This document shows, piece by piece, positions 3,095 through 24,136 of a stretch of 31,283 nt of DNA. The notes beneath the pieces are model-generated. The model ran no database searches, was not told the origin of the DNA, and saw only the letters and a program-made list of their open reading frames with translations. The position numbers and the translations under genes are program-made. The first letter of the stretch is position 1, and each line of letters opens with the position of its first letter. Source of the DNA: a virus (Duplodnaviria > Heunggongvirae > Uroviricota > Caudoviricetes); IMG/VR virus record IMGVR_UViG_2579778786_000007; one strand, given 5' to 3'.

Positions 3095-3399
3095 GCCCCG
3101 GTGAACGCCTGAATGGACTTAATCACATTGCGGAATTAAGGGCGAAAGTTTTTGGCCTGAATATTGAGTCAGAGCTTGAGCGGTTTATTAAAGATATGCG
3201 TGATCCATGGGATATCAATAATGAACAAAATAAAAGGGCACTGGCTGCCATATTCTTTATGGCAAAAATTCCAGCTGAACGTCATAGCACCAGCATTAAT
3301 GAGCTGACCACTGACGAAAAGCGGGAGTTGATTAAAGCAATGAATCATTTTCGTGCAGTGGTGAGCTTATTTCCCAGACGGCTAACCATGCCGAATTAA
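3058..3399 (+). CDS. Hypothetical early protein (113 aa)
   Basis: ORF in the early operon; no recognisable motif. Confidence 0.45.
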   Translation: MAIEGTAATVPLSPGERLNGLNHIAELRAKVFGLNIESELERFIKDMRDPWDINNEQNKRALAAIFFMAKIPAERHSTSINELTTDEKRELIKAMNHFRAVVSLFPRRLTMPN

Positions 3400-3460
3400 C
3401 CAACTAATGAAATTAATGGCGTAAACCCGCCGGGCATCCCTTTATCTAAATTCAGGAGAA

Positions 3461-3700
3461 TTGATTATGCGTAATATTGAAATCCTCACGACTAAAACCG
3501 GACCGGATGACGCAGGGCTTAATATTTTACTGACAGAGGCTCGTCTGGAAGAACGCCGGGCAAGGGCTGAAGCAATGGCAGCTCGCCTTGATAGCCTGGC
3601 GTGTCATATCACATCCCGCCAGCTAAACCACGTCGAAGCAGCAGAACTGCTGCGTGTGACTGCTGAAGCAATCCAGAGCGAAGCGCAGGAGATCCACTAA
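3461..3700 (+). CDS. Hypothetical early protein (79 aa)
   Basis: AGGAG RBS upstream; stop overlaps the start of the next gene. Confidence 0.45.
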   Translation: MIMRNIEILTTKTGPDDAGLNILLTEARLEERRARAEAMAARLDSLACHITSRQLNHVEAAELLRVTAEAIQSEAQEIH

Positions 3701-3927
3701 TGGCTGATGCAATGGATCTCGTACAGCAGCGCGTTGAAGAAGAACGCCAGCGCCATATCCGTGCTGCCCGTGCCAAAACACCGGGCGTGTCTCGCGTGCT
3801 TTGTATTGAATGTGAAGCGCCAATTCCGCCAGCACGCCGCCGCGCCATTCCGGGTGTGCAGCTTTGCATTACCTGTCAGGAAATCGCAGAGCTGAAAGGC
3901 AAACATTACAACGGAGGTGTTGTATGA
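3700..3927 (+). CDS. TraR/DksA-family C4 zinc-finger protein
   Basis: 75 aa with CxxC...CxxC (CIECEAP...CITCQE), typical of phage TraR-like proteins. Confidence 0.7.
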   Translation: MADAMDLVQQRVEEERQRHIRAARAKTPGVSRVLCIECEAPIPPARRRAIPGVQLCITCQEIAELKGKHYNGGVV

Positions 3928-4781
3928 GCACCATCCTGAAATGGGCGGGAAATAAAACCGCCATTATGTCCGAACTGAAAAAACATCTTCCTGCTGGCCC
4001 GCGACTGGTTGAACCTTTCGCGGGGTCCTGTGCTGTGATGATGGAGACGGATTATCCCAGCTATCTGGTTGCGGATATTAATCCTGATTTAATCAACCTC
4101 TATAAAAAGGTTGCCGCTGATTGTGAATCGTTTATATCTCGCGCCAGAGTTTTATTTGAGATCGCAAACAGGGAGGTGGCTTATTACAACATAAGGCAGG
4201 AGTTTAATTACTCAACTGAAATTACTGATTTCATGAAAGCGGTATATTTCCTGTATCTCAATCGTCACGGTTACCGTGGTTTATGTCGCTATAACAAGAG
4301 CGGGCATTTCAACATTCCCTACGGTAATTATAAAAATCCGTATTTCCCTGAAAAAGAAATTCGCGCATTTGCAGAAAAGGCCCAGCGAGCAACGTTTATC
4401 TGCGCCAGCTTTGATGAAACGCTGGCGATGTTGAAGGCGGGAGATGTGGTGTATTGCGATCCGCCGTATGACGGTACGTTTTCCGGCTATCACACTGATG
4501 GTTTCACTGAAGATGACCAGTATCACCTGGCATCCGTTCTTGAACATCGGTCATCAGAAGGACATCCGGTCATTGTTTCTAACAGTGACACATCCCTGAT
4601 CCGTTCGCTGTATCGCAATTTTACTCACCACTATATCAAGGTAAAACGCAGCATCGGTGTGGCAGCTGGCGAGGGTAAATCAGCAACAGAAATCATTGCT
4701 GTTTCCGGGCCGCGCTGCTGGATGGGATTTGATTATTCGCGTGGCGTGGATAGTTCTGCCGTGTACGGAGTACGTGCATGA
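3924..4781 (+). CDS. dam: DNA N6-adenine methyltransferase (Dam-like)
   Basis: ATG 3924 with GGAGG 6 nt upstream, overlapping the TraR stop (ATGA); N-terminal ILKWAGNK AdoMet-binding motif and catalytic DPPY (CDPPYDGTF). Confidence 0.85.
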
Positions 4782-7192
4782 GTCATGCCGATATGAACAA
4801 CTGCTGCGGCTTTAACGAGGCTGCCGCAGCGTTCTCATGGAACAGCCCGAAAAAGGCCATTAACCCTTATCTGGACCCGGCGGAAGTTGCGCCGGTTTCT
4901 ACGCTTTCAAACCTGATCACTCTGTACGCTGCCGATAACGAGCAGGAACAGTTGCGCCGCGAGGCACTGAGTGATCAGGTCTGGGAGCGTTATTTCTTTA
5001 ATGAATCACGTGATCCTGTCCAGCGCGAAATGGAGCAGGATAAGCTCATTAGCCGGGCAAAGCTGGCGCATGAGCAGCAGCGTTTTAATTCAGACATGGT
5101 CATTCTGGCGGACGTCAACGCCCAGCCTTCCCATATCAGCAAGCCGCTGATGCAACGTATTGAATACTTCAGCAGCCTGGGCAGGCCAAAGGCTTATTCC
5201 CGCTATTTACGTGAGACGATTAAGCCATGTCTGGAACGACTGGAGCATGTACGCGACAGTCAGCTATCTGCATCTTTTCGCTTTATGGCAAGCCATGAAG
5301 GGCTGGACGGCCTGCTGATCCTGCCTGAAATGAGTCAGGATCAGGTGAAACGCCTGTCCACCTTGGTAGCTGCGCATATGAGTATGTGCCTTGATGCAGC
5401 TTGTGGTGATTTGTATGCCACCGATGACGTTAAGCCAGAAGAAATCCGCAAGACATGGGAAAAGGTGGCAGCGGAAACCCTGCGTCTGGATGTCATCCCG
5501 CCTGCGTTTGAGCAACTCCGTCGGAAAAGAAACCGCCGTAAACCCGTGCCCTATGAACTCATTCCGGGTTCGCTGGCGCGTATGCTGTGCGCCGACTGGT
5601 GGTATCGGAAATTGTGGAAGATGCGTTGCGAATGGCGGGAAGAGCAGTTGCGTGCTGTCTGCCTGGTCAGCAAAAAAGCATCTCCCTATGTCAGCTATGA
5701 AGCCGTGATGCATAAACGTGAGCAGCGCCGTAAGTCACTGGAGTTTTTCCGTTCTCATGAACTGGTGAACGAAGACGGAGACGCGCTGGATATGGAAGAT
5801 GTGGTAAACGCCAGCAGCAGCAACCCGGCGCATCGTCGCAATGAGATGATGGCCTGTGTTAAAGGTCTGGAGCTTATCGCGGAAATGCGCGGTGACTGCG
5901 CCGTTTTCTACACCATTACCTGTCCGTCACGTTTCCATTCCACGCTCAATAACGGCAGACCCAACCCGACATGGACAAATGCGACGGTAAGACAAAGCAG
6001 CGATTATCTGGTCGGTACGTTTGCTGCATTTCGTAAGGCGATGCACAAAGCCGGGTTGCGCTGGTATGGCGTGCGGGTGGCTGAGCCGCATCATGACGGC
6101 ACAGTTCACTGGCACCTGTTGTGTTTCATGCGCAAAAAAGACCGCCGCGCCATTACTGCATTGTTGCGTAAGTTTGCTATCCGTGAAGACCGTGAGGAGC
6201 TGGGCAATAACACGGGGCCGCGCTTTAAGTCTGAGCTGATTAACCCGCGAAAAGGAACGCCGACAAGCTACATCGCGAAATACATCAGTAAGAACATTGA
6301 TGGGCGTGGTCTGGCTGGCGAAATCAGCAAGGAAACGGGTAAATCCCTGCGTGATAACGCTGAATACGTTAATGCCTGGGCGTCTCTGCATCGTGTTCAG
6401 CAATTTCGCTTCTTTGGTATTCCGGGGCGTCAGGCGTACCGTGAATTGCGATTGCTGGCTGGTCAGGCGGCAAGGCAACAGGGTGACAAAAAAGCAGGTG
6501 CGCCGGTACTGGATAACCCGCGCCTTGATGCCATTCTGGCTGCTGCTGATGCTGGTTGTTTTGCCACCTACATTATGAAGCAGGGCGGCGTACTGGTTCC
6601 CCGCAAATATCACCTTATCAGAACAGCTTATGAAATTAACGAAGAGCCGACCGCCTATGGCGATCACGGTATTCGTATTTATGGCATCTGGTCACCCATT
6701 GCAGAGGGCAAGATTTGTACTCATGCAGTGAAGTGGAAAATGGTTCGTAAGGCCGTTGACGTTCAGGAGGCGGCAGCCGACCAGGGCGCTTGCGCCCCTT
6801 GGACTCGTGGCAATAACTGTCCCCTTGCTGAAAATTTGAACCAACAGGAGAAAGATAAATCAGCTGATGGGGACCCCAGAACGGACTTTACCCGCATGGA
6901 TGACAAGGAGTTGCACGATTACCTGCACAGTATGAACAAAAAGGAGCGCCGGGAACTGGCTGCAAGGTTACGTCTGGTGAAACCGAAACGGCGTAGAGAC
7001 TACAAACAGCGAATTACAGACCATCAACGACAGCAGCTCGTCTATGAACTGAAATCCAGAGGATTTGATGGCAGCGAGAAAGAGGTCGATTTACTCCTTC
7101 GCGGCGGCAGTATTCCGTCAGGAGCAGGCCTGCGTATCTTCTATCGGAACCAGCGTTTGCAGGAAGATGATAAGTGGCGGAACCTGTATTAA
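4778..7192 (+). CDS. A: Replication initiation protein A (rolling-circle replication endonuclease, P2 gpA family)
   Basis: 804-aa ORF, start overlapping the dam stop; size and position match gpA of P2/186. Confidence 0.85.
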
Positions 7193-7285
7193 TTACGCTG
7201 GTTAACAATTCGTGCTCTTAATAATACCAGGCATATCAAGCTGATAAGCGTAAAAAAAACGTTTTACATCAGTAAGATTATTATA

Positions 7286-7305
7286 TACTGTAAATATAAA
7301 CAGTG
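7286..7305. promoter_or_regulatory. LexA (SOS) box taCTGtaaatataaaCAGtg
   Basis: 17 of 20 matches to TACTGTATATATATACAGTA with correct CTG-N10-CAG spacing, in an AT-rich promoter-like region about 40 bp upstream of the orf62/DinI-like operon. Confidence 0.6.
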
Positions 7306-7346
7306 GTTATACATACAGTATTTCTTGTGGTGTCATAGGAGGAAAG

Positions 7347-7535
7347 ATGCAGGACTATTTTTTGGAGTCTTTGAAGCTCCAGCGCATTGATTTTTTTCTT
7401 AAGCTTGTAGCGGCTAGTGAGTGTAGTGATGAAGAGAAGGGGCTGGCTCTGCAGTGGGTTTCTGAATTGACTGATGAACTCATGGCAAAAATCAGAAGCC
7501 ACGAATACAACCGCTCAATGGATGTCATCAGCTGA
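7347..7535 (+). CDS. Small hypothetical protein (62 aa), first ORF of the putative SOS operon; possibly the N-terminal part of a split Tum-like gene
   Basis: Strong RBS AGGAGG 6 nt before the ATG; downstream frame overlaps the upstream-open frame of the DinI-like gene (7471-7535). Confidence 0.45.
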   Translation: MQDYFLESLKLQRIDFFLKLVAASECSDEEKGLALQWVSELTDELMAKIRSHEYNRSMDVIS

Positions 7536-7545
7536 GGTGACTTTT

Positions 7546-7779
7546 ATGCGCATTGAAATAATGATCGATAAAGAGCAGAAGATTAGCCAGTCTACCCTGG
7601 ACGCCCTTGAATCCGAGCTTTACCGCAATCTGCGCCCCCTGTATCCCAAAACGGTAATCCGTATCCGTAAAGGTAGCTCTAACGGTGTGGAACTGACCGG
7701 ACTGCAACTGGACGAAGAAAGAAAACAAGTGATGAAAATTATGCAGAAGGTGTGGGAAGACGACAGCTGGCTGCATTGA
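7546..7779 (+). CDS. DinI-family protein (phage 186 Tum antirepressor-like)
   Basis: 77 aa; MRIEI...DALESEL...WEDDSW aligns with E. coli DinI (MRIEV...DALAGEL...WESADDW); GAGGTG RBS; location after A matches the 186 SOS operon. Confidence 0.75.
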   Translation: MRIEIMIDKEQKISQSTLDALESELYRNLRPLYPKTVIRIRKGSSNGVELTGLQLDEERKQVMKIMQKVWEDDSWLH

Positions 7780-7892
7780 TTTTGTCAATAGACGCTTGTT
7801 TTTACTAATCAAAAAGGGTTACATATGAGTGAGAGGCGATGTCAATCGGATATCGCCTTGTTTTTTGTCAAGAAAAGAATAATAGGCTAAAA

Positions 7893-8570
7893 ATGAAAAT
7901 TAATAATGTAGCGTTACCAATATCTCTTGCTGTAATCCTAACTGGTTGCGTGCCACATGCTTCTAACCGAAATATCACTGCTATTGAAGTGGTGAAGCCT
8001 GCTATTGGGCAAAGTGCTACCGCCTACATGGGCGATCCCATTATCACATCTGCTACTGGATTTAAAACGGACGTACTAGAACTTGGTGCGGCTAATGGTG
8101 CATTGTCTTCTATCGCTGCTGGTACATATTGCAGTGAGGGGAATGGAATTTACCGCAATTATCATAACCCTCAAGCTGTTGCGTTAAAAAATCTCTATGG
8201 GCAAATCGGTAACTATGTTGATTATGTTAGTTACGATGCTGCAAAAAATGAGATATCACCGCCAAATGGTACTTCTTATACTGCATCAGAAATTTCTATC
8301 AAACGTGTTCCTGATGGGCTGTGTCGAGTTAGTAACTCATTGGTTAAGACTATCGAATACAATGGAAATGCAGGCGGTGTAATGAAGTTCACCTATCGTG
8401 AATTTGCAAACGATATGGCTCGTGCAGCATTTACAACAGATTTTTCTGTAGATTCTAAGGGAAGTGACGTTATCGCTTACAAAGGTGCCAAGTTCAAAGT
8501 GAACAAGGCTGATAACTCGTCTATTTCTTATACAATTATTTCTGGCTTTGACAAGGCTGTCACGTTCTAG
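7893..8570 (+). CDS. Predicted outer-membrane lipoprotein, unknown function (cargo gene)
   Basis: Signal peptide with lipobox (AVILTG|C) and no Asp at +2; AT-rich relative to the phage backbone; no recognisable catalytic motif. Confidence 0.6.
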   Translation: MKINNVALPISLAVILTGCVPHASNRNITAIEVVKPAIGQSATAYMGDPIITSATGFKTDVLELGAANGALSSIAAGTYCSEGNGIYRNYHNPQAVALKNLYGQIGNYVDYVSYDAAKNEISPPNGTSYTASEISIKRVPDGLCRVSNSLVKTIEYNGNAGGVMKFTYREFANDMARAAFTTDFSVDSKGSDVIAYKGAKFKVNKADNSSISYTIISGFDKAVTF

Positions 8571-8674
8571 TTTTCACGCTTACTGAGTATGTTACGATTT
8601 TGCACATTCTGCATAAGCGCGCATGTCTATGCTGCATGAGATCGCATGATCGTTTGAGGATCTTTTGTGTTAAG

Positions 8675-8698
8675 GCCCGCCAGTTCTGGCGGGCTTTT
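8675..8698 (+). terminator. Rho-independent terminator candidate (GC-rich hairpin plus T-tract)
   Basis: gcccgcc-agttct-ggcgggc followed by TTTT, about 105 bp downstream of the lipoprotein gene. Confidence 0.5.
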
Positions 8699-8743
8699 GC
8701 GTAGATCATGCAGGTGCATGAAAACCACTACATAAAGCGGGCA

Positions 8744-8762
8744 GGCGTGGCGGGGATACGAG
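8744..8762. other. cos-like sequence (candidate cohesive-end site)
   Basis: GGCGTGGCGGGGATACGAG shares its first 13 nt with the 186/P2 cohesive end as I recall it (GGCG(T/A)GGCGGGGAAAGCA); positionally consistent with cos lying between the right-end accessory genes and Q. Confidence 0.3.
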
Positions 8763-8829
8763 CGCGCGCAACGGGTTGTCATTCAAACTCCAATGCTATA
8801 AAACTGTGTAATACAAACAACTAAAGTAG

Positions 8830-10584
8830 GTGGCCTCAGTGGAACTGCAAGCAAATGCTCGAACCTTAACAAACGTGTTATCTGTAAATAAAAAATATAT
8901 AGTCCCTAGATTCCAAAGAGAATATTCTTGGGGGAAGGAACAAGTAAGTGAACTTTGGCATGATATAGTTTCCAATATTCATTACCAGGAGGATGGGCAG
9001 TATCAATATGATGAGTATTTCATCGGTGCTCTCGTTTTGGTCGGGCAGGAAACTAGCTCTGAGCTGATGATTGTAGATGGTCAACAACGTCTTACGACTC
9101 TTACTATATTGTTATCAGCATTATGTGATAAATTTAAGTTGATAAATGAGTTGGCTGTAGCTCAATCAATATATAATAATTATATATCTGGTATGGATGA
9201 CGATGGCAGACCTTTTTTTAAATTAGTTAATGAAACTCCTAAGCCATACTTTCAAAACAACATTCAGCATATTGATAAGAGAAATGAAGGACCGGAGTCC
9301 CTTGAAGAAAGAAACTTGCAATCTTCATATAATGATTTAACTGAGTATCTTTCAGAAGATAATCTTTGCCAGACATTAGGAGTAGATAGAGAGAAATTTA
9401 TCTACTTGGAAGCGTTGAAGGCTGTGCGGGATCAAGTTCTACGGTATCTGAAAGTGATTTATATTACAGTTAATGATGAAGATGAAGCTTATACAATCTT
9501 TGAAACTCTGAATGCTAGGGGATTAAACTTAAGTTATGTAGATCTTATAAAAAACAAATTATTTAAGAAACTGAATGGCACACATCCTGATGATGATGCA
9601 AAAACTAAATGGAATAAAATTAGGCAAATAATTGCTAGTCGTAATGGTGTCGGTTCTATCGAAACATTTATCCGTCATTGGTGGGTGTCAAAATATTCTT
9701 ATGTAAGTAGTGACACTCTTTATAAAGCTTTTCTGGATAAGTGGAAAAAAGGCGACATTGATGCTTCAGCGTTCATTGATGAGCTACTTTCAGATGCCGA
9801 GATATATGTGAAAATATCATCGCCTACAGAACAGGATTTTCCTGAACTGGAAATGAAACCAGTTTATCGAGGTTTGCAGGCATTAAGGCTGTTTAACATA
9901 TCTCAGAATAAACCATTTTTGTTATCTTTATTTAAGGCAAGAGCAAGAGGAACGCTAAAACTTGTTGATATGAATAATGCAGTGCTGTCAATTGAACGCT
10001 TTCATTTTATGTTTAATGCTATTTGTTCATTGCGACCATCAGGTATTGAAAGTGCGTATGCTAAAGCTGCTAGGGCTTTAGTGGATGAAGGTTCTACTAA
10101 AGCTAGTAATAGACAAGTAATAAAGTCTTTGCTTGAAATGTTGGTGAAGAGAAAACCAGACATTAATATGTTTGTTGAAAAGTTTGTTATGCTTAAATTT
10201 TCAAATCAAGAGTTGAAAAATAAAAGGTTGATTCAGTACATTTTTAATAGACTTGAGTTACATCACATGAAAACGGGGGAGTATATGCCTGATTCATTAA
10301 CATTAGAGCATATTCAGCCTCAGAGTGTGGGGGATTCTGAAGTATATAGCATGATAGGAAATTTATTACCACTTTCAAAAGAATTAAATGAAAAAGCTGG
10401 AAATAAGTCTGTTGTGGATAAGCTTGAAATTTATAAACAATCACAATATGCGCTAGTTAAAATTTTTATTGATGAATTTGAAAATAAATATCAAGGAGAA
10501 TGGACGCCCGATCATATGAGGTCAAGAGCTGCTGAACTAAGTATTTTATCGTATAATTCAGTATGGAAATTGGGGCGTGAGTAA
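8830..10584 (+). CDS. DUF262/DUF1524 two-domain nuclease, GmrSD-like (candidate type IV restriction / anti-phage defence protein)
   Basis: 584 aa. N-terminal DUF262/ParB-like motifs (PRFQREYSW; DGQQR at 9076-9090; FETLNARG); C-terminal DUF1524/His-Me-finger-like motifs (TLEHIQPQ about 10306-10320; GNLLPLSKELNEKAGNKS). Strongly AT-rich; GTG start. Confidence 0.75.
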   Translation: MASVELQANARTLTNVLSVNKKYIVPRFQREYSWGKEQVSELWHDIVSNIHYQEDGQYQYDEYFIGALVLVGQETSSELMIVDGQQRLTTLTILLSALCDKFKLINELAVAQSIYNNYISGMDDDGRPFFKLVNETPKPYFQNNIQHIDKRNEGPESLEERNLQSSYNDLTEYLSEDNLCQTLGVDREKFIYLEALKAVRDQVLRYLKVIYITVNDEDEAYTIFETLNARGLNLSYVDLIKNKLFKKLNGTHPDDDAKTKWNKIRQIIASRNGVGSIETFIRHWWVSKYSYVSSDTLYKAFLDKWKKGDIDASAFIDELLSDAEIYVKISSPTEQDFPELEMKPVYRGLQALRLFNISQNKPFLLSLFKARARGTLKLVDMNNAVLSIERFHFMFNAICSLRPSGIESAYAKAARALVDEGSTKASNRQVIKSLLEMLVKRKPDINMFVEKFVMLKFSNQELKNKRLIQYIFNRLELHHMKTGEYMPDSLTLEHIQPQSVGDSEVYSMIGNLLPLSKELNEKAGNKSVVDKLEIYKQSQYALVKIFIDEFENKYQGEWTPDHMRSRAAELSILSYNSVWKLGRE

Positions 10585-10610
10585 ATGCCGGGGGGGGCCC
10601 AGCATATTTA

Positions 10611-11657
10611 TCAAAAAGAATCGTTTGTGAAATTTAGGGAGTAGGCATCAAAGCGTATTGCTTCTTCGCCTAGCCAATAGTTAAGTTCTTGTAGCTGTTT
10701 CTGCAGGGGCATCAGTTCGTTGCGGACAAAAACACGACTAGCCTTCTCCACATCACCAAAGCCCCCAACATTATTAGGCATTATCCCCATCATTTGCGGC
10801 GGCACACGGTGTGCCGCCATCATGTCGTCCCGGCTCACGTTCTTGATATTCAGAAACTCATCCTTCGCCGCGACTTCTGACAACGGGATAATCTGAAGCC
10901 CGTCCTTTTTGCCGTTAGGAGAGTACATAAACAGGTTGCGGAAGTTGCCTGGCCCTTTGGCACTTTTCATTGCATTGCGGAGGTTGTTCACATCCTCCTG
11001 GTTCTGCGCGGCATCGGTCATGTACATGATGAAGCCTGCATGACTGCCGTTAATATAATACTTCCGGCGGAACAGCGTGGCGGACTCGTTGAGCAGGGCT
11101 GATGGAATGGCAGAAAGATAACCTGGCAGGCCGTAGATCTCCTGGTTGATGTCCGGTTCCATCAGATGAAAAATGCTGCCTTTCGTGAACTGATACGGCT
11201 GGGTTGTCATACCGTATTGCACAAACCAGTAGGTATCCAGGTCTAACCCGCGTCGGGTGTATTTTGCCAGAGCAGGCTCAAGGGCGATAACTTCACCGAA
11301 GCGGTTCGTGCGTTTCTCCAGGTAGGCGTTACCAAATACCAGATAGTCCTGCACAAAACGTGAAAAAGCCTGCTGGCTGAGCAGCGGGTGAGGGATGTAG
11401 GTACTGGTCAGAATGTTGCATTTCACCGCAATTGGTGAGCTGTGATGCACGGCGGCGCGGAAGGTTCGTGCCAGTCCGTCAAAGCTGACGGGCGGCTCAT
11501 ACCAGCGGTCCATCTGTACGCATTCCACATAGTCCAGCAGTTCTCGGCGGTCCAGAACAGGAACGGGATCGCCGAAGCTGAATGCTTCGGCTGTAGTCTG
11601 GCTTTTAAGCTGGATCTGTTTCGTCGCCGCAGCGCGGTTCTTCTTACTCTTTCCCAT
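10611..11657 (-). CDS. Q: Portal protein (P2 gpQ family)
   Basis: About 348 aa, minus strand, start ATG overlapping the P stop (TGATG); size and position match P2 Q. Confidence 0.9.
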   Translation of the reverse strand: MGKSKKNRAAATKQIQLKSQTTAEAFSFGDPVPVLDRRELLDYVECVQMDRWYEPPVSFDGLARTFRAAVHHSSPIAVKCNILTSTYIPHPLLSQQAFSRFVQDYLVFGNAYLEKRTNRFGEVIALEPALAKYTRRGLDLDTYWFVQYGMTTQPYQFTKGSIFHLMEPDINQEIYGLPGYLSAIPSALLNESATLFRRKYYINGSHAGFIMYMTDAAQNQEDVNNLRNAMKSAKGPGNFRNLFMYSPNGKKDGLQIIPLSEVAAKDEFLNIKNVSRDDMMAAHRVPPQMMGIMPNNVGGFGDVEKASRVFVRNELMPLQKQLQELNYWLGEEAIRFDAYSLNFTNDSF

Positions 11658-13252
11658 CAAAAAATCTCCACAATATTGCTGGTATTGGCGGATTCGCCCT
11701 GCAGCGGTTCGTTAAACAATGCGTGCATCGTTGCCCAGGCCAGATCGGCGTGGCTGGCTTCTTCGCTGCGGCTGGCTTCATAGGTCGGGCGGTTGCCGCT
11801 GGCGGTGGTTGCGCGACGGATTGCCATGAATGACTGCGCAATGTCGGTGTGTCCGGCGTCAAACTCCAGACGGCGGTGGCTGATAATGTCGTAGGCCTTG
11901 AGTACCAGAGCGTTTTTAACGTTGGGGTTGTAGACAAACTCCCGGACGGCTGGAAAAAACGCTTTCACGTTCTCGTAAACCCCGTGGCCGACACCTGTCG
12001 AGTCGATGCCGATGTAGGTCACGTTGTACTGCTCGGTCAGTTTTTTGATGGCGTCAGCCTGGGCGCGGAAGTCCATCCCGCGCCACTGGTGACGCTCAAG
12101 AATGCGGAACTTACCACCCGGCACGGCTGGCGGTGCCACCACCACGCATCCGGCACTGTCGCCGTTCTGCGTACCTTTTGCCGGGTCATAACCGATCCAC
12201 ACTTCGCGCCAGCCAAACGGGCGCAGGGCCAGTGCATGAAAGTCGGTCCAGACTTCCCAACTGTCCACCATGCACGCTTGCAGCTCGCTGAGCGGGAACA
12301 CGGACGCGAGATCGTCCACAAACTCACACATCAGCAGGTTCTGGTATTCGTCCGGGCTGTACTCCATGCGCAACTGGTCGAGGTCGAACAGGTTACAGCC
12401 GCCCCGCACCGCATCTTCCACGGTGACTATCTGGCGGTACTGCCCGTCTGCGCACAGCAGGCCGGGGGACAGATTGCTGTGGGACAGGTCGATGTCCACC
12501 TTATCGGCTTTGTTGCGCCCTCGGTTGAACAGCGCACCGGACCAGAACGGATAAGCACTGTGTGTCAGACTGGATGGTGTGGAAAAATAGGTCTGTCGCC
12601 ATTTTTTGTGAATAGCCATACCGGAAGCCACTTTGCGCAGCTCCTGGAATTTCGGTATCCAGAAATATTCATCCAGATACAGGTTGCCGTGGTAACTCTG
12701 GGCCGTGCGGGCATTGGTGCCGAGGAAGTAAAGCGTGGCCCCGTTAGGAAGCACCATCGGATCACCTTTCAGCTCCACCTCGACTTCTTTGGCGAAATCG
12801 ATGATGTACTGCTTAAAGACGTGAGCCTGTGCCTTACTGGCAGAAAGGAAAATCTGGTTACGTCCGGTAAGCAGGGCGTCAATCAGGGCTTCACGGGCAA
12901 AATAGAAGGTCGCGCCGATCTGGCGTGACTTTAGCAGGTTGCGGATGCGGTTGGTTTTTCCGGCTTCCCACCAGTGGCGCTGGTAGTTGAACATGGAGGA
13001 ATGGAAAATTTCTTCCAGCTTCTCAATCTGTTCATCGGTGAAAACATTCTTTTCAGGCTGACGGCGCGGGCCTTTGTTGCGGTTGGCGACGTTAGGGTTT
13101 AAGTCGGCTTCGTTGCCGCCATTGTTAAACTTGCCGATCCGCGCGTGGCGCTCAGACTGGCGCGCCAGCAGGTCAATCTCTTTGAAATCTTTCCCTTCTT
13201 TGTGCTCCTTCATAATGAGCTGGCAGTAGCGTGCGGCGGTGGTGAGCTGCAT
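11657..13252 (-). CDS. P: Terminase ATPase (large) subunit, P2 gpP family - the 531 codons downstream of an in-frame TGA
   Basis: Long minus-strand ORF divergent from O, with conserved terminase blocks; P2 gpP is about 590 aa, so the N-terminus is missing from this ORF. Confidence 0.85.
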   Translation of the reverse strand: MQLTTAARYCQLIMKEHKEGKDFKEIDLLARQSERHARIGKFNNGGNEADLNPNVANRNKGPRRQPEKNVFTDEQIEKLEEIFHSSMFNYQRHWWEAGKTNRIRNLLKSRQIGATFYFAREALIDALLTGRNQIFLSASKAQAHVFKQYIIDFAKEVEVELKGDPMVLPNGATLYFLGTNARTAQSYHGNLYLDEYFWIPKFQELRKVASGMAIHKKWRQTYFSTPSSLTHSAYPFWSGALFNRGRNKADKVDIDLSHSNLSPGLLCADGQYRQIVTVEDAVRGGCNLFDLDQLRMEYSPDEYQNLLMCEFVDDLASVFPLSELQACMVDSWEVWTDFHALALRPFGWREVWIGYDPAKGTQNGDSAGCVVVAPPAVPGGKFRILERHQWRGMDFRAQADAIKKLTEQYNVTYIGIDSTGVGHGVYENVKAFFPAVREFVYNPNVKNALVLKAYDIISHRRLEFDAGHTDIAQSFMAIRRATTASGNRPTYEASRSEEASHADLAWATMHALFNEPLQGESANTSNIVEIF

Positions 13253-17604: not shown

Positions 17605-17982
17605 ATGAAAAAGAAAGTAATCAGCGGGCTGTTTCTGATGTTATGGATAGATCTGTTAATCGCCGTAATGGTGTATCCGCAGGGGATTTTTCCGGTACTG
17701 GCAGCATCTGGTGTCTGGGTAGCCTGTCTGCTGACATGGGCAGTAATTCCGGTATCACTGGCTGTGTTAATTAAGAACGGCCCGCTCTGGCAGGAGTTGA
17801 GGGCATCTTTGCTGAAGACAATTACCCGAAAAGAAAACGTATTTATCAGCTGGATGATGCGATTGCTGATTGTCGTCAGTCTCGCCTGGACGGGGTGGGC
17901 TATTACCCTGGTCTTTTTTCTGCTGACCGTTATTGCCTTTTGGATGACCCGTAATCAGATTGCGCAACAGGTATCAGCATGA
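17605..17982 (+). CDS. lysA: LysA-like membrane protein (lysis timing)
   Basis: ATG one base after the endolysin stop; about 125 aa with several TM helices. Confidence 0.6.
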   Translation: MKKKVISGLFLMLWIDLLIAVMVYPQGIFPVLAASGVWVACLLTWAVIPVSLAVLIKNGPLWQELRASLLKTITRKENVFISWMMRLLIVVSLAWTGWAITLVFFLLTVIAFWMTRNQIAQQVSA

Positions 17983-18407
17983 ACCGGTTGCTGCTGGTTG
18001 TGCTGGCGTTATTACTGGCGGCGCTGGGCTGGCAGACGTGGCGGCTGGCTGATGCCAGCCAGACCATCAGCACGCAGGCAGACGAGCTGCAGAGCAAAAG
18101 CCAGGCACTGGCAAAGAGCAACAGCCAGCTTATCAGCCTGTCCATTCTGACTGAAACCAATAACCGGGAGCAGGCGCGGCTCTATGCCGAAGCAGAACAG
18201 ACCAGCGCGCTGCTGAGACAACGACAACACCGGATCGAGGAACTGAAACGTGAGAACGAGGATTTACGCCGCTGGGCTGATACTACTTTGCCTGCTGACA
18301 TTATCCGGCTGCGGGAACGTCCGGCACTCACCGGAGGTACGGCTTACCGTCAGTGGTTGTCCGCGAGTGACGCCGTGTCGGCTGGATCAGGCAACGCCGC
18401 GCACTAA
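17979..18407 (+). CDS. lysB: LysB, Rz-like inner-membrane spanin
   Basis: N-terminal TM helix then coiled-coil-like Q/E/R-rich region; start overlaps the lysA stop. Confidence 0.65.
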   Translation: MNRLLLVVLALLLAALGWQTWRLADASQTISTQADELQSKSQALAKSNSQLISLSILTETNNREQARLYAEAEQTSALLRQRQHRIEELKRENEDLRRWADTTLPADIIRLRERPALTGGTAYRQWLSASDAVSAGSGNAAH

Positions 18408-18540
18408 CGGTGATCTGAACGCGTTGCTGGATGAAACGGAGGCCGCCTGGGCGGTCTGTGCAGACAAAGTGGACATGATTATTGCGTGTCAGGAGCGAAA
18501 CAGTGAACAAACCACAATCCCTGCGCCACGCACTCAATAA
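18250..18540 (+). CDS. lysC: LysC, Rz1-like outer-membrane lipoprotein spanin, embedded out of frame in lysB
   Basis: Lipobox LTLSG|C; ORF starts inside lysB in another frame and extends past its stop. Confidence 0.6.
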   Translation: MRTRIYAAGLILLCLLTLSGCGNVRHSPEVRLTVSGCPRVTPCRLDQATPRTNGDLNALLDETEAAWAVCADKVDMIIACQERNSEQTTIPAPRTQ

Positions 18541-21869: not shown

Positions 21870-23617
21870 GCACAAAATTTTATACCCTGCTGACGGATAT
21901 TGGCGCGGCGAAACTTGCCAGCGCCGCCGCGCTCGGTGTGCCGTTAAAAATTACCCATATGGCGGTCGGCGATGGCGGCGGAACATTACCAACGCCGGAC
22001 GCAAAGCAGACAGCACTGGTAAATGAGAAACGCCGGGCTGCGCTGAATATGCTCTATATCGACCCGCAGAACAGCAGCCAGATTATTGCTGAACAGGTGA
22101 TCCCTGAAAACGAGGGCGGTTGGTGGATACGTGAAGTGGGCCTGTTTGATGAGTCCGGGGCATTGATTGCCGTGGGCAACTGCCCGGAAAGCTATAAGCC
22201 GCAACTGGCTGAAGGCAGCGGGCGTACCCAGACCGTGCGTATGGTGTTGATTACCAGCAGCACGGACAATATCACCCTGAAAATCGACCCTGCCGTAGTG
22301 CTGGCAACCCGCAAGTATGTGGATGACAAAATATCAGAGCACGAACAGTCACGACGTCACCCGGACGCCTCGCTGACCGCAAAGGGTTTTACTCAGTTAA
22401 GCAGTGCGACCAACAGTGAATCCGAAATACTGGCCGCAACACCGAAGGCTGTGAAGGCTGCATATGATCTTGCAGCAGGTAAAGCATCCGCCAGTCACAC
22501 ACACCCGTGGAATCAGATAACGGATGTGCCTGCAGCTTCACTGACGGTAAAAGGCACCGTGCAACTCAGCAGCGCCACTAACAGCACGTCAGAAACGCAG
22601 GCTGCCACACCAAAGGCAGTGAAGGCGGCATATGACCTTGCAGCAGGTAAGGCACCTGTCAGTCACACGCACCCGTGGAGCCAGATAACAGATGTGCCTG
22701 CAGCTTCACTGACGGTAAAAGGCACCGTGCAACTCAGCAGCGCTACTAACAGCACGTCAGAAACGCAGGCTGCCACACCAAAAGCCGTGAAGGCTGTATA
22801 TGACCTTGCCAATGGAAAACAACCTGCCGACGCCACACTGACCGCACTGGCAGGCCTTGCCACTGCGGCAGACAAACTTCCGTATTTTACGGGGAATGAT
22901 ACAGCCAGCCTGACAACCCTGACTAACGTTGGACGGAATATTCTGGATAAAGCAAGCACACAGGCGGTTATTCAATATCTTGGTCTGAGCGATGCAAGTG
23001 GATACGTTGGACGCTGGCTGAATACCCGGGTTTTCACGTCATCAGGTACGTACACCCCGACGCCAGGAACAAAACGGATCAGGGTCACAATAACGGGCGG
23101 CGGTGGCGGAGGGGGCGGCTGCAAGGCTATATCCAATAATGAAACGTTTTTCGGTGCTGGCGGCGGGGCAGGTGGGACAGTAATCACCACGCTGATCCTG
23201 ACGAAGGATAGTTATCCTGTCACTATCGGCGCAGGTGGGGCCGGCGGCGTTAGTGCGACGAACGGCCTCAAGGGCGGTGATAGCTCGTTCGGATCGGTAA
23301 TAGCCCCTGGTGGTGAAGGTGGTGGAAAATCAGGAGTCACAAACACGAACGGTGGTAACGGCGGTGTGCCAAGTACTGGCGGTATCAACATCATTGGTGG
23401 AAATGGAGGCGACGGTCAGTCCGGAAATATCGGCGTCAGCGGTGAAGGCGGAACATCGCACTGGGGTGGCGGTGGACGCGCAGGCGCTGGCGGTGGTGTT
23501 AGTGGTAAGGCATATGGTTCAGGTGGCGGTGGCGCATACGATGCCGGTTATAGCGGAACCAGTATGACAGGCGGGAAAGGTGCCGCTGGGATTTGTATTA
23601 TCGAGGAGTTTGCATAA
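21866..23617 (+). CDS. H: Tail fibre protein (P2 gpH family) with internal tandem repeats and a Gly-rich C-terminal domain
   Basis: 583 aa; conserved N-terminus (MSTKFYTLLTDIGAAKLA); repeated LSSATNSTSE..AATPKAVKAAYDLA units; C-terminal 170 aa is Gly-rich. Confidence 0.85.
   Translation: MSTKFYTLLTDIGAAKLASAAALGVPLKITHMAVGDGGGTLPTPDAKQTALVNEKRRAALNMLYIDPQNSSQIIAEQVIPENEGGWWIREVGLFDESGALIAVGNCPESYKPQLAEGSGRTQTVRMVLITSSTDNITLKIDPAVVLATRKYVDDKISEHEQSRRHPDASLTAKGFTQLSSATNSESEILAATPKAVKAAYDLAAGKASASHTHPWNQITDVPAASLTVKGTVQLSSATNSTSETQAATPKAVKAAYDLAAGKAPVSHTHPWSQITDVPAASLTVKGTVQLSSATNSTSETQAATPKAVKAVYDLANGKQPADATLTALAGLATAADKLPYFTGNDTASLTTLTNVGRNILDKASTQAVIQYLGLSDASGYVGRWLNTRVFTSSGTYTPTPGTKRIRVTITGGGGGGGGCKAISNNETFFGAGGGAGGTVITTLILTKDSYPVTIGAGGAGGVSATNGLKGGDSSFGSVIAPGGEGGGKSGVTNTNGGNGGVPSTGGINIIGGNGGDGQSGNIGVSGEGGTSHWGGGGRAGAGGGVSGKAYGSGGGGAYDAGYSGTSMTGGKGAAGICIIEEFA
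22355..22810 (+). repeat. About 2.7 copies of a 168-bp (56-aa) tandem repeat inside the tail-fibre gene
   Basis: Copy starts at 22523 and 22691 are nearly identical at DNA level; the copy from about 22355 is more diverged. Confidence 0.8.
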
Positions 23618-24030
23618 TGAATGCGTCATATGCAGTTATTGAAAATGGGATGGTTGTGAATGTCATTGTCTGGGATGGCGAGGCTGAATTCACAGTGCCG
23701 GATAATCAGCAGCTCATTAATATTTCTGATATCAGTGAGCAGCCCGGAATCGGCTGGGTTTATTCAGACGGGGGATTTACTGCACCACCCACCCAGGAAC
23801 GTTCTCATGATGAACTGGTAGCTGACGCTGAACAGAAAAAACAGTCGCTGTTAGACGCAGCAATGGCCAATATCAGCGTGATTCAGTTAAAGCTGCAGGC
23901 CGGGCGCAAACTGACGCAAGAGGAAACTACCCGACTTAACGTTGTGCTGGATTATATCGAGGCTGTGACGGCAACAGATACCAGCACCGCACCTGATATC
24001 ATTTGGCCTGTTTTCCCTGCAAGCAGATAA
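23617..24030 (+). CDS. G: Tail fibre assembly chaperone (P2 gpG / Tfa family)
   Basis: ATG 23617 overlapping the H stop; C-terminal ...PDIIWPVFP motif typical of Tfa proteins. Confidence 0.7.
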   Translation: MNASYAVIENGMVVNVIVWDGEAEFTVPDNQQLINISDISEQPGIGWVYSDGGFTAPPTQERSHDELVADAEQKKQSLLDAAMANISVIQLKLQAGRKLTQEETTRLNVVLDYIEAVTATDTSTAPDIIWPVFPASR

Positions 24031-24042
24031 ATACCGTCATTT

Positions 24043-24060
24043 TGTGTGAATAACGGTACA
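24043..24060. promoter_or_regulatory. TGT-N12-ACA dyad (late-promoter activator site for the FI operon)
   Basis: TGTgtgaataacggtACA, about 80-95 bp upstream of the FI start in the G/FI intergenic region. Confidence 0.45.
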
Positions 24061-24136
24061 ACTGCGCTTAGCTGCTTGTCAGACACAATCACTTCAACAT
24101 AGGGCGAAGCCTAATCCAATCAGGAGGTTCGCCACT

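Follow-up and report, generated by a model that had tools for sequence, protein, structure and literature searches.

The 31,283-nucleotide stretch of viral DNA analysed here (IMG/VR record IMGVR_UViG_2579778786_000007, in the following the window) is a prophage of the P2/186/Fels-2 type (Peduoviridae). The gene at positions 7893 to 8570 very probably forms a stand-alone cassette of the 'moron' type in this prophage, encoding a secreted, lipid-anchored, all-beta protein of ~22 kDa. For the function of this lipoprotein we tentatively favour an envelope-level exclusion factor directed against incoming phages or phage-like weapons. The gene, its cassette and the adjoining right flank are located as follows.

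7893-8570, plus strand: lipoprotein gene, encoding a precursor of 225 amino acids (aa) with a signal peptide at residues 1-18 and the codon of Cys19 at 7947-7949
7778-8620, plus strand: lipoprotein cassette ('slot A'), a presence/absence unit of 843 bp with 39.7% GC
8621-8771, plus strand: conserved right flank of 151 bp, found in prophages with or without the cassette and carrying a terminator and cos

The start codon at 7893 encodes a Met that is shared by all 21 aligned homologues, and the same 225-aa form was called by the Prokaryotic Genome Annotation Pipeline in E. coli HS (WP_000700647.1). A longer version of 243 aa, starting at the first in-frame ATG (7839), was rejected, since this ATG lies within a hairpin (7833-7859) and no homologue reaches that far. 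The signal peptide, MKINNVALPISLAVILTG followed by C, carries K2 in its n-region, a hydrophobic core and the lipobox L-T-G-C19, with Val at position +2. Throughout the family the lipobox Cys is invariant (93 of 93 members) and is preceded by Gly in 87% of them, and Asp was found at +2 in none of the 93 relatives, which carry A, V, T, K, I or S there. The original prediction of a lipoprotein signal peptide with a lipobox and no Asp at +2 is thereby borne out and, according to the enterobacterial +2 rule, the protein is predicted to be sorted to the outer membrane by the Lol system.

Exactly two additional Cys residues are present in 76 of the 93 relatives. C80 and C144 tend to occur together or not at all (both in 25 relatives, neither in 66, one of them in 2), a pattern which fits one predicted disulfide between them. 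A lipoprotein with one putative disulfide points to an oxidising compartment and, given the expected C80-C144 bond, the protein would act in the periplasm or at the cell surface. An AlphaFold2 model built from 93 sequences reached a mean local confidence (pLDDT) of 87.8 and a predicted template-modelling score (pTM) of 0.69, and shows the mature protein (~206 aa) as an all-beta fold of 17 strands. Conservation across the family is concentrated in the C-terminal module, on residues that are for the most part polar or aromatic (Y156, G158, Y168-R169-E170, R177, D187, Y196-K197, N208 and Y213); residues of this kind are typical of a ligand- or glycan-binding site, which we regard as putative here. 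Comparison with the copy in a P2-like prophage of Buttiauxella gave pN 0.095 and pS 0.81, indicating purifying selection, and comparison with more distant copies (57% identical) gave dN/dS values of ~0.15-0.2. Evidently, the reading frame is a real, selectively maintained gene and not a chance ORF (open reading frame).

Searches of Pfam, NCBIfam and PADLOC returned no family match for the lipoprotein (Pfam and PADLOC at E ≤ 0.1; PADLOC-DB 2.0 comprises 5027 defence-protein models). The earlier statement that no motif can be assigned holds for these three collections but not for PHROGs, where the protein is a full-length member of phrog_1353 (function unknown; E 3.1e-105, residues 1-223 against profile positions 1-230 of 230); the other PHROGs match, phrog_6360, was non-significant. 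In a profile search of PDB sequences the sole match was the signal peptide of TrwH, and a Foldseek comparison with BFVD gave no match at E ≤ 0.001. The gene had also been described as an orphan. This description has to be given up, as an exhaustive HMMER search recovered at least 1456 cluster representatives (at 50% identity, E ≤ 1e-3) of the phrog_1353-related family. Most family members are 215-240 aa long, and the C-terminal module of ~75 aa is also found in longer proteins. The gene itself is already held in databases as hypothetical or of unknown function, under STM2726, WP_000700647.1 and phrog_1353.

The borders of the cassette were derived from E. coli prophages whose slot is empty or filled with other cargo, the flanks of which align to 7600-7777 and 8621-8771 only. 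As homology stops at 7777, at the stop codon of the DinI-like gene, and resumes at 8621, the cassette corresponds to 7778-8620. The upstream flank with orf62 and the DinI-like gene was found in 1281 of 5426 complete E. coli genomes, and only 50 of these 1281 carry the lipoprotein gene. The coding sequence has a GC content of 40.7%, close to that of the cassette and far below the 51.9% of the window. The cassette is present or absent between collinear related phages and deviates in base composition, and in this sense it is a moron; the gene had been called AT-rich cargo from the outset, and on both points the comparison agrees.

The original prediction had furthermore assigned the gene a terminator of its own, to which the following hairpin corresponds.

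8675-8698, plus strand: Rho-independent terminator GGCCCGCCAG-UUCU-GGCGGGC-UUUU in the conserved flank (folding free energy dG -22.8 kcal/mol, z -4.7)

Since this hairpin lies within the block 8621-8771, which is also found in phages with an empty slot, the terminator is shared and does not belong to the lipoprotein gene. Between the stop codon of the gene and the terminator (8571-8672), repeated GCATG/TGCAT motifs (e.g. gcacattctgcataagcgcgcatgtctatgctgcatgagatcgcatgatc) were noted, partly in the conserved flank, and these could form part of the region of cos that the terminase recognises.

Other prophages carry different contents in slot A. It amounts to 82 bp without a gene in E. coli D3, holds a 111-aa ORF in the BL21-derived strain Rosetta2 and two ORFs in CFT073, and in E. 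coli KL53 it contains a DUF4145 protein on the opposite strand (positions 3206-3946 of locus L015), which matched the PADLOC model PD-T7-4 with E 2e-5. PD-T7-4 is a validated defence gene; judged by this resemblance, slot A appears able to hold defence-like genes as well.

Close copies of the lipoprotein are 99-100% identical across prophages of E. coli, of clinical clones of K. pneumoniae (recorded hosts of sequence types ST11, ST258, ST512 and others) and of Salmonella. Identity to STM2726 of Fels-2 is 99% at the amino-acid level, WP_000700647.1 of E. coli HS is likewise the same gene, and an identical protein is encoded by ~24 P2-like phages of Klebsiella. The right end of the prophage appears to have a history of its own. 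Whereas the backbone genes dam, gpA, gpQ and gpP of Fels-2 share only 76-90% nucleotide identity with the window, the segment that begins with the orf62/DinI operon and runs across the cassette as far as cos shares 96.7-100%, which suggests that this right-end module was recently exchanged. In the Buttiauxella prophage, by comparison, the cassette has diverged like the backbone (74% versus 66-80%), and this prophage retains the LexA box, orf62, the hairpin upstream of the gene and the lipoprotein gene itself, suggesting that the cassette has long been resident in this lineage. The cassette also travels independently of the tail-fibre type: the same lipoprotein (99-100%) was found together with three different C-termini of the tail-fibre protein H in phages of E. 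coli, Klebsiella and Salmonella (the alignment with Fels-2 H is confined to residues 1-158, and H of Klebsiella phage 4LV2017 is 54% identical), and the lipoprotein gene lies ~13 kb from the tail-fibre gene H.

Upstream of the cassette the following features were identified.

4778-7192: gpA replication endonuclease (Pfam Phage_GPA)
7288-7303, plus strand: perfect LexA box CTGTAAATATAAACAG, the sole CTGT-N8-ACAG site in the window, upstream of the orf62/DinI operon
7347-7535, plus strand: 62-aa ORF (orf62, phrog_698), first gene of the SOS operon and equivalent to STM2728 of Fels-2
7546-7779, plus strand: DinI-like (TumB-like) gene of 78 aa (Pfam DinI, E 1.2e-22), so annotated in Fels-2 and E. 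coli
7833-7867, plus strand: terminator-like hairpin with T-run just upstream of the ribosome-binding site of the lipoprotein gene (stem of 11 bp at 7833-7859; dG -16.5 kcal/mol, z -4.0)

Together, the LexA box, the 62-aa ORF and the DinI/TumB-like gene are reminiscent of the SOS induction module of the tum type in phage 186; the product of the 62-aa ORF is without a known domain and may be the antirepressor. The LexA box is kept in the Buttiauxella prophage (L031, 2632-2647), and so is the hairpin at 7833-7867 (L031, 3153-3186), with one compensatory double change from G-C to U-A and one wobble; this hairpin looks like a terminator which insulates the lipoprotein gene from the SOS operon, but it may instead attenuate transcription or be bypassed by a promoter within it. 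The sole match of a promoter scan, at 7865-7894, was rejected because its -10 element overlaps the start codon. By eye, a weak candidate promoter was found at 7801-7829 (TTTACT-17-TATGAG), which is poorly conserved and would start transcription in the 5' arm of the hairpin; also by eye, the TGT-N12-ACA motif of an Ogr-type late promoter was absent upstream of the gene. Expression data are available for Fels-2, whose lipoprotein gene is STM2726. In Salmonella TA100, which carries Fels-2, the predicted operon STM2726-STM2727-STM2728 was up 2.6- to 14.8-fold after treatment with the mutagen MX, with p ≤ 0.01 for all three genes (PMC2225428, Tables 2 and 3). The induction of STM2726 indicates that the lipoprotein gene is damage-inducible in the lysogen, and the source of this expression may be read-through, a promoter of its own or prophage replication.

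Downstream of the cassette lie cos and a second variable interval.

~8743-8761, unstranded: cos cleavage region GGCGTGGCGGGGATACGAG, located by the ends of linear records of related phages
8830-10584, plus strand: slot B cargo, a nuclease of the GmrSD type (DUF262/DUF1524; Pfam GmrSD_N, E 1e-38, and GmrSD_C, E 1.2e-11; PADLOC HEC-06, E 3.8e-90)
10611-11660, minus strand: portal protein gpQ (Pfam Phage_portal; synteny with Fels-2), the right boundary of the cos-proximal variable region

The linear records of phages SEN8, Midge and SI22 terminate at, or within a few bases of, ~8743-8759, where GGCGTGGCGGGGA occurs, which places cos at ~8743-8761; we take this region to resemble the cohesive end of phage 186. 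With cos at this position the lipoprotein gene is the last gene at the right end of the virion chromosome. Its position between the SOS operon and cos is therefore as first described, and it is indeed cos-proximal cargo. The assignment to the accessory hotspot needs a correction, as slot A lies to the left of cos and is distinct from the slot between cos and portal gene that contains the GmrSD-type nuclease. The cos-proximal 'hotspot' of Fels-2-like phages comprises two independent variable slots, A behind the DinI-like gene and B between cos and portal gene, which are split by the block 8621-8771.

Slot B (8772-10610) is outside the lipoprotein unit and is considered here as context. Its protein of 584 aa, encoded at 34.4% GC and with a stop codon 26 bp from that of the portal gene, probably acts as a nuclease in type IV, modification-dependent restriction or in defence. 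Elsewhere slot B holds a retron (4LV2017, Rosetta2), a TIR/SEFIR protein (Buttiauxella) or a 565-aa unknown protein (Fels-2). Over most of its length the window is 96-97% identical to 4LV2017 at the nucleotide level, with the exception of the immunity region, the interval from cos to the portal gene and the tip of the tail fibre. The C-terminus of the tail-fibre gene (gpH) together with its assembly gene (22329-24136) is the main structural difference from 4LV2017 and Fels-2 and suggests that a host-range cassette was swapped; at this place Fels-2 has, in addition, the DNA invertase of an invertible segment. A gene for a Dam-like DNA adenine methylase (3864-4781, plus strand) lies directly upstream of gpA, overlapping it. 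The Fels-2 record notes similarity to the methylase of retron Ec67, and the enzyme may guard against restriction or take part in regulation. An Rfam scan of 7000-9000 gave nothing meaningful.

Beyond the enterobacterial P2-like phages, named sources of the family include Vibrio, Pseudoalteromonas, Alkalimarinus, Jeongeupia, Brevundimonas, Sphingomonadaceae and a metagenome-assembled genome of Planctomycetes. For 10 distant relatives Pfam gave no family above its cut-off and only sub-threshold noise. The genomic contexts are diverse. One member lies near an OLD-family nuclease in a prophage that has a serine integrase and a lambda-type terminase, another at the edge of a small serine-recombinase island of K. 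pneumoniae together with a weak putAbiC match, and a third in an island beside CS1-type fimbrial genes. Members in siphophages of Acinetobacter and Moraxella are found inside the tail module, the former adjoining a toxin-antitoxin pair. Further members are carried by non-mobilizable plasmids of ~95-128 kb in E. coli, Citrobacter, Shigella and Edwardsiella, one of which contains tail-fibre, DnaB and ParA genes; these plasmids look like phage-plasmids. In Alkalimarinus sediminis (CP101527.1; locus L036, 1-10666) a member is part of an integron-like cassette array, with repeats ending in GCAAGGCGTTAG on both sides. This array, which is probably a chromosomal integron, consists of small same-strand ORFs with attC-like repeats of ~100 nt between them and also includes RelB/ParE and DMP19 cassettes. 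A conserved partner gene was ruled out, as the neighbours differ in every context examined and none recurs. The family is captured repeatedly by mobile elements.

The tentatively favoured function of the lipoprotein, envelope-level exclusion, is a possibility which we rate somewhat above each of its alternatives. The protein would act alone, at the envelope of the lysogen or of the induced cell, on the periplasmic or the surface side, as its lipobox and putative disulfide suggest. Its ligand there would be a conserved part of the envelope, either a glycan or an outer-membrane protein, contacted through the conserved C-terminal Tyr/Arg/Glu/Asp/Asn cluster, and this contact would prevent other phages or phage-like weapons from adsorbing or from delivering their DNA. 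In principle, such exclusion would resemble that exerted by Llp, Cor, TraT, Ltp and Sim, with an unrelated protein as its agent. Several findings are in line with this proposal. The gene stands alone as cargo in diverse mobile elements, and the alternative occupant of slot A in KL53 resembles PD-T7-4. Moreover, the cassette is set in the cos-proximal part of P2-like phages that is known as a defence region (PMC9122126, PMC9519451), and the Fels-2 copy is damage-induced (PMC2225428).

A number of observations weigh against exclusion. Neither PADLOC nor Pfam nor PHROGs shows the lipoprotein to resemble a known exclusion or defence protein, and there is in particular no detectable sequence relation to Llp or Cor, the sole significant PHROGs match being phrog_1353 and Pfam giving none. 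The searchable literature reports no phenotype and no experiment tying the family to phage exclusion, and for STM2726, WP_000700647 and EcHS_A0921 only a microarray paper from 2007 was found. The promoter scan gave no consensus-grade sigma-70 promoter usable for the start codon, and the published induction could be due to replication of the prophage and not to LexA. In Jeongeupia, Pseudoalteromonas and Brevundimonas (here between a TauE gene and ispG, in three assemblies), distant relatives occupy chromosomal sites that look stable, pointing to an ancestral function in the cell envelope that has nothing to do with phages. Finally, the gene is unlinked to receptor-binding genes and rides with three tail-fibre tips. 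As the same protein accompanies these tips in three host genera, it cannot mask the primary receptor of its own phage; any exclusion target would consequently have to be conserved across Enterobacteriaceae, or a step of DNA entry would have to be affected.

Exclusion at the envelope is the working model also for T5 Llp and for Cor of phi80, N15 and HK022, phage lipoproteins which inactivate FhuA. Like these, the present protein is a single, accessory, phage-encoded lipobox protein with predicted outer-membrane location. In contrast to them, it is roughly three times larger (~206 aa mature, versus ~60-80 aa for Llp and Cor), its gene neither adjoins nor co-varies with receptor-binding or tail-fibre genes, whereas llp is linked to the receptor-binding protein in T5, and its family has chromosomal relatives outside phages. 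TraT (~25 kDa), the surface-exclusion and serum-resistance protein of F-like plasmids, is closer in size and is also an outer-membrane-type lipoprotein of mobile elements that acts alone at the surface, as is predicted here. However, Pfam TraT (PF05818) gave no match at E ≤ 0.1, the present gene resides on phages and in integron-like cassettes instead of a transfer operon, and its fold is predicted to be all-beta, without a solved analogue. Bor/Iss of lambda, which confers serum resistance, shares with it the status of a prophage moron for an outer-membrane-type lipoprotein, but Bor has ~97 aa and Pfam Lambda_Bor (PF06291) gave no match at the same threshold. An o-spanin of the Rz1/LysC type was rejected as well, these being small, Pro-rich proteins of the lysis cassette and the present one a 225-aa all-beta protein next to cos; the LysB/LysC region is located at ~17979-18540 by synteny with Fels-2.

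With the cos-proximal hotspot cargo of P2-like phages (tin, old and retrons; PMC9122126, PMC9519451) the gene shares the interval from gpA to gpQ, the AT-richness and the exchangeability, and it likewise adjoins validated or predicted defence genes (GmrSD in the window, a retron in 4LV2017 and Rosetta2). It differs in its location, a slot of its own on the left side of cos and directly behind the DinI-like gene, whereas in these Fels-2-like phages the classical variable block extends from cos to gpQ, and in encoding an envelope protein without a PADLOC match instead of a cytoplasmic nuclease or abortive-infection module. Vassallo et al. (PMC9519451) list 'a lipoprotein' among their systems, and the PADLOC models give no match to the one described here; two studies of the P2 hotspot (PMC9122126, PMC13586616) do not discuss it. 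Judged by these comparisons, the protein appears to be an uncharacterised addition to the outer-membrane lipoproteins of mobile elements, outside the Llp, Cor, Bor, TraT and spanin families. It is without a Pfam model and without a solved structural analogue, and nothing shows an unusual mechanism.

A factor of lysogenic conversion or host fitness, which alters the envelope of the lysogen (serum or complement resistance, stress tolerance, adhesion or permeability) in the manner of Bor/Iss, TraT or Lom/Ail, is the strongest competitor, although we consider it rather unlikely. The distant members in non-mobile chromosomal loci of alpha-, beta- and gammaproteobacteria speak for it, as does the member in the integron-like array, a setting typical of adaptive functions, and the 99-100% identity across prophages of E. 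coli, K. pneumoniae and Salmonella whatever the tail-fibre type. Against it, the lipoprotein shows no Pfam Lambda_Bor or TraT similarity at E ≤ 0.1, the searchable literature reports no phenotype, and both the location in the cos-proximal defence region and the damage-inducible expression fit a role in phage conflict better than a constitutive benefit to the host.

Markedly less probable is an orphan immunity or inhibitor protein, which would face the periplasm and disarm a toxin or enzyme that arrives from outside and attacks the envelope, such as an effector of a type VI secretion system (T6SS) or of contact-dependent inhibition, a colicin or a lysozyme-like hydrolase. A secreted lipoprotein of ~200 aa with one putative disulfide, standing alone on mobile elements and in an integron-like array, has the fitting format, which is shared by immunity proteins against T6SS amidases and lipases and by inhibitors of the MliC/PliC type, and orphan immunity genes are common on mobile elements. 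However, an adjacent effector or toxin gene was found in none of the ~14 contexts inspected, and neither Pfam nor PDB offered a relative among the known immunity and inhibitor families.

We hold a role in the lytic cycle of the phage itself (lysis, egress or the guarding of progeny from re-adsorption to debris), switched on together with the SOS antirepressor operon, to be very improbable. Such a role would accord with a gene that is co-oriented with, and directly downstream of, the LexA-controlled operon, and with the DNA-damage induction in Fels-2, and T5 Llp offers the precedent of a lytic-phase lipoprotein which protects the progeny. The gene is, however, absent from ~96% of the E. coli prophages with the same flanks and is consequently dispensable, and the synteny with Fels-2 places an endolysin and a LysB/LysC set of the phage itself elsewhere. 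The terminator-like hairpin between the SOS operon and the lipoprotein gene, the homologues in non-phage contexts and the independence from the tail-fibre type also argue against it. A non-functional or decaying ORF carried along by AT-rich hotspot DNA, as the missing recognisable domain and clear promoter might suggest, is effectively refuted by strong purifying selection and has next to no probability left, given also the invariant lipobox Cys and conserved polar cluster in 93 homologues, the confident fold prediction and the transcription of the Fels-2 copy. The probability that is left over falls to functions which have yet to be thought of.

P2-like prophages carry a major reservoir of anti-phage genes in their cos-proximal region, where nearly all of the validated cargo is cytoplasmic, i.e. 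nucleases, retrons and abortive-infection modules. Functional screens such as that in PMC9519451 deliberately dropped clones which altered adsorption, so that envelope-acting cargo of the hotspot is systematically under-studied. As a compact, highly conserved single-gene cassette in prophages of E. coli, Salmonella and epidemic K. pneumoniae, the lipoprotein gene is an inexpensive first test case. If it does not act in exclusion, the lipoprotein is an ordinary hypothetical moron. If it does, the host range available to phage therapy in Klebsiella would be affected, and a family of more than 1400 sequence clusters without a Pfam entry would gain a function.

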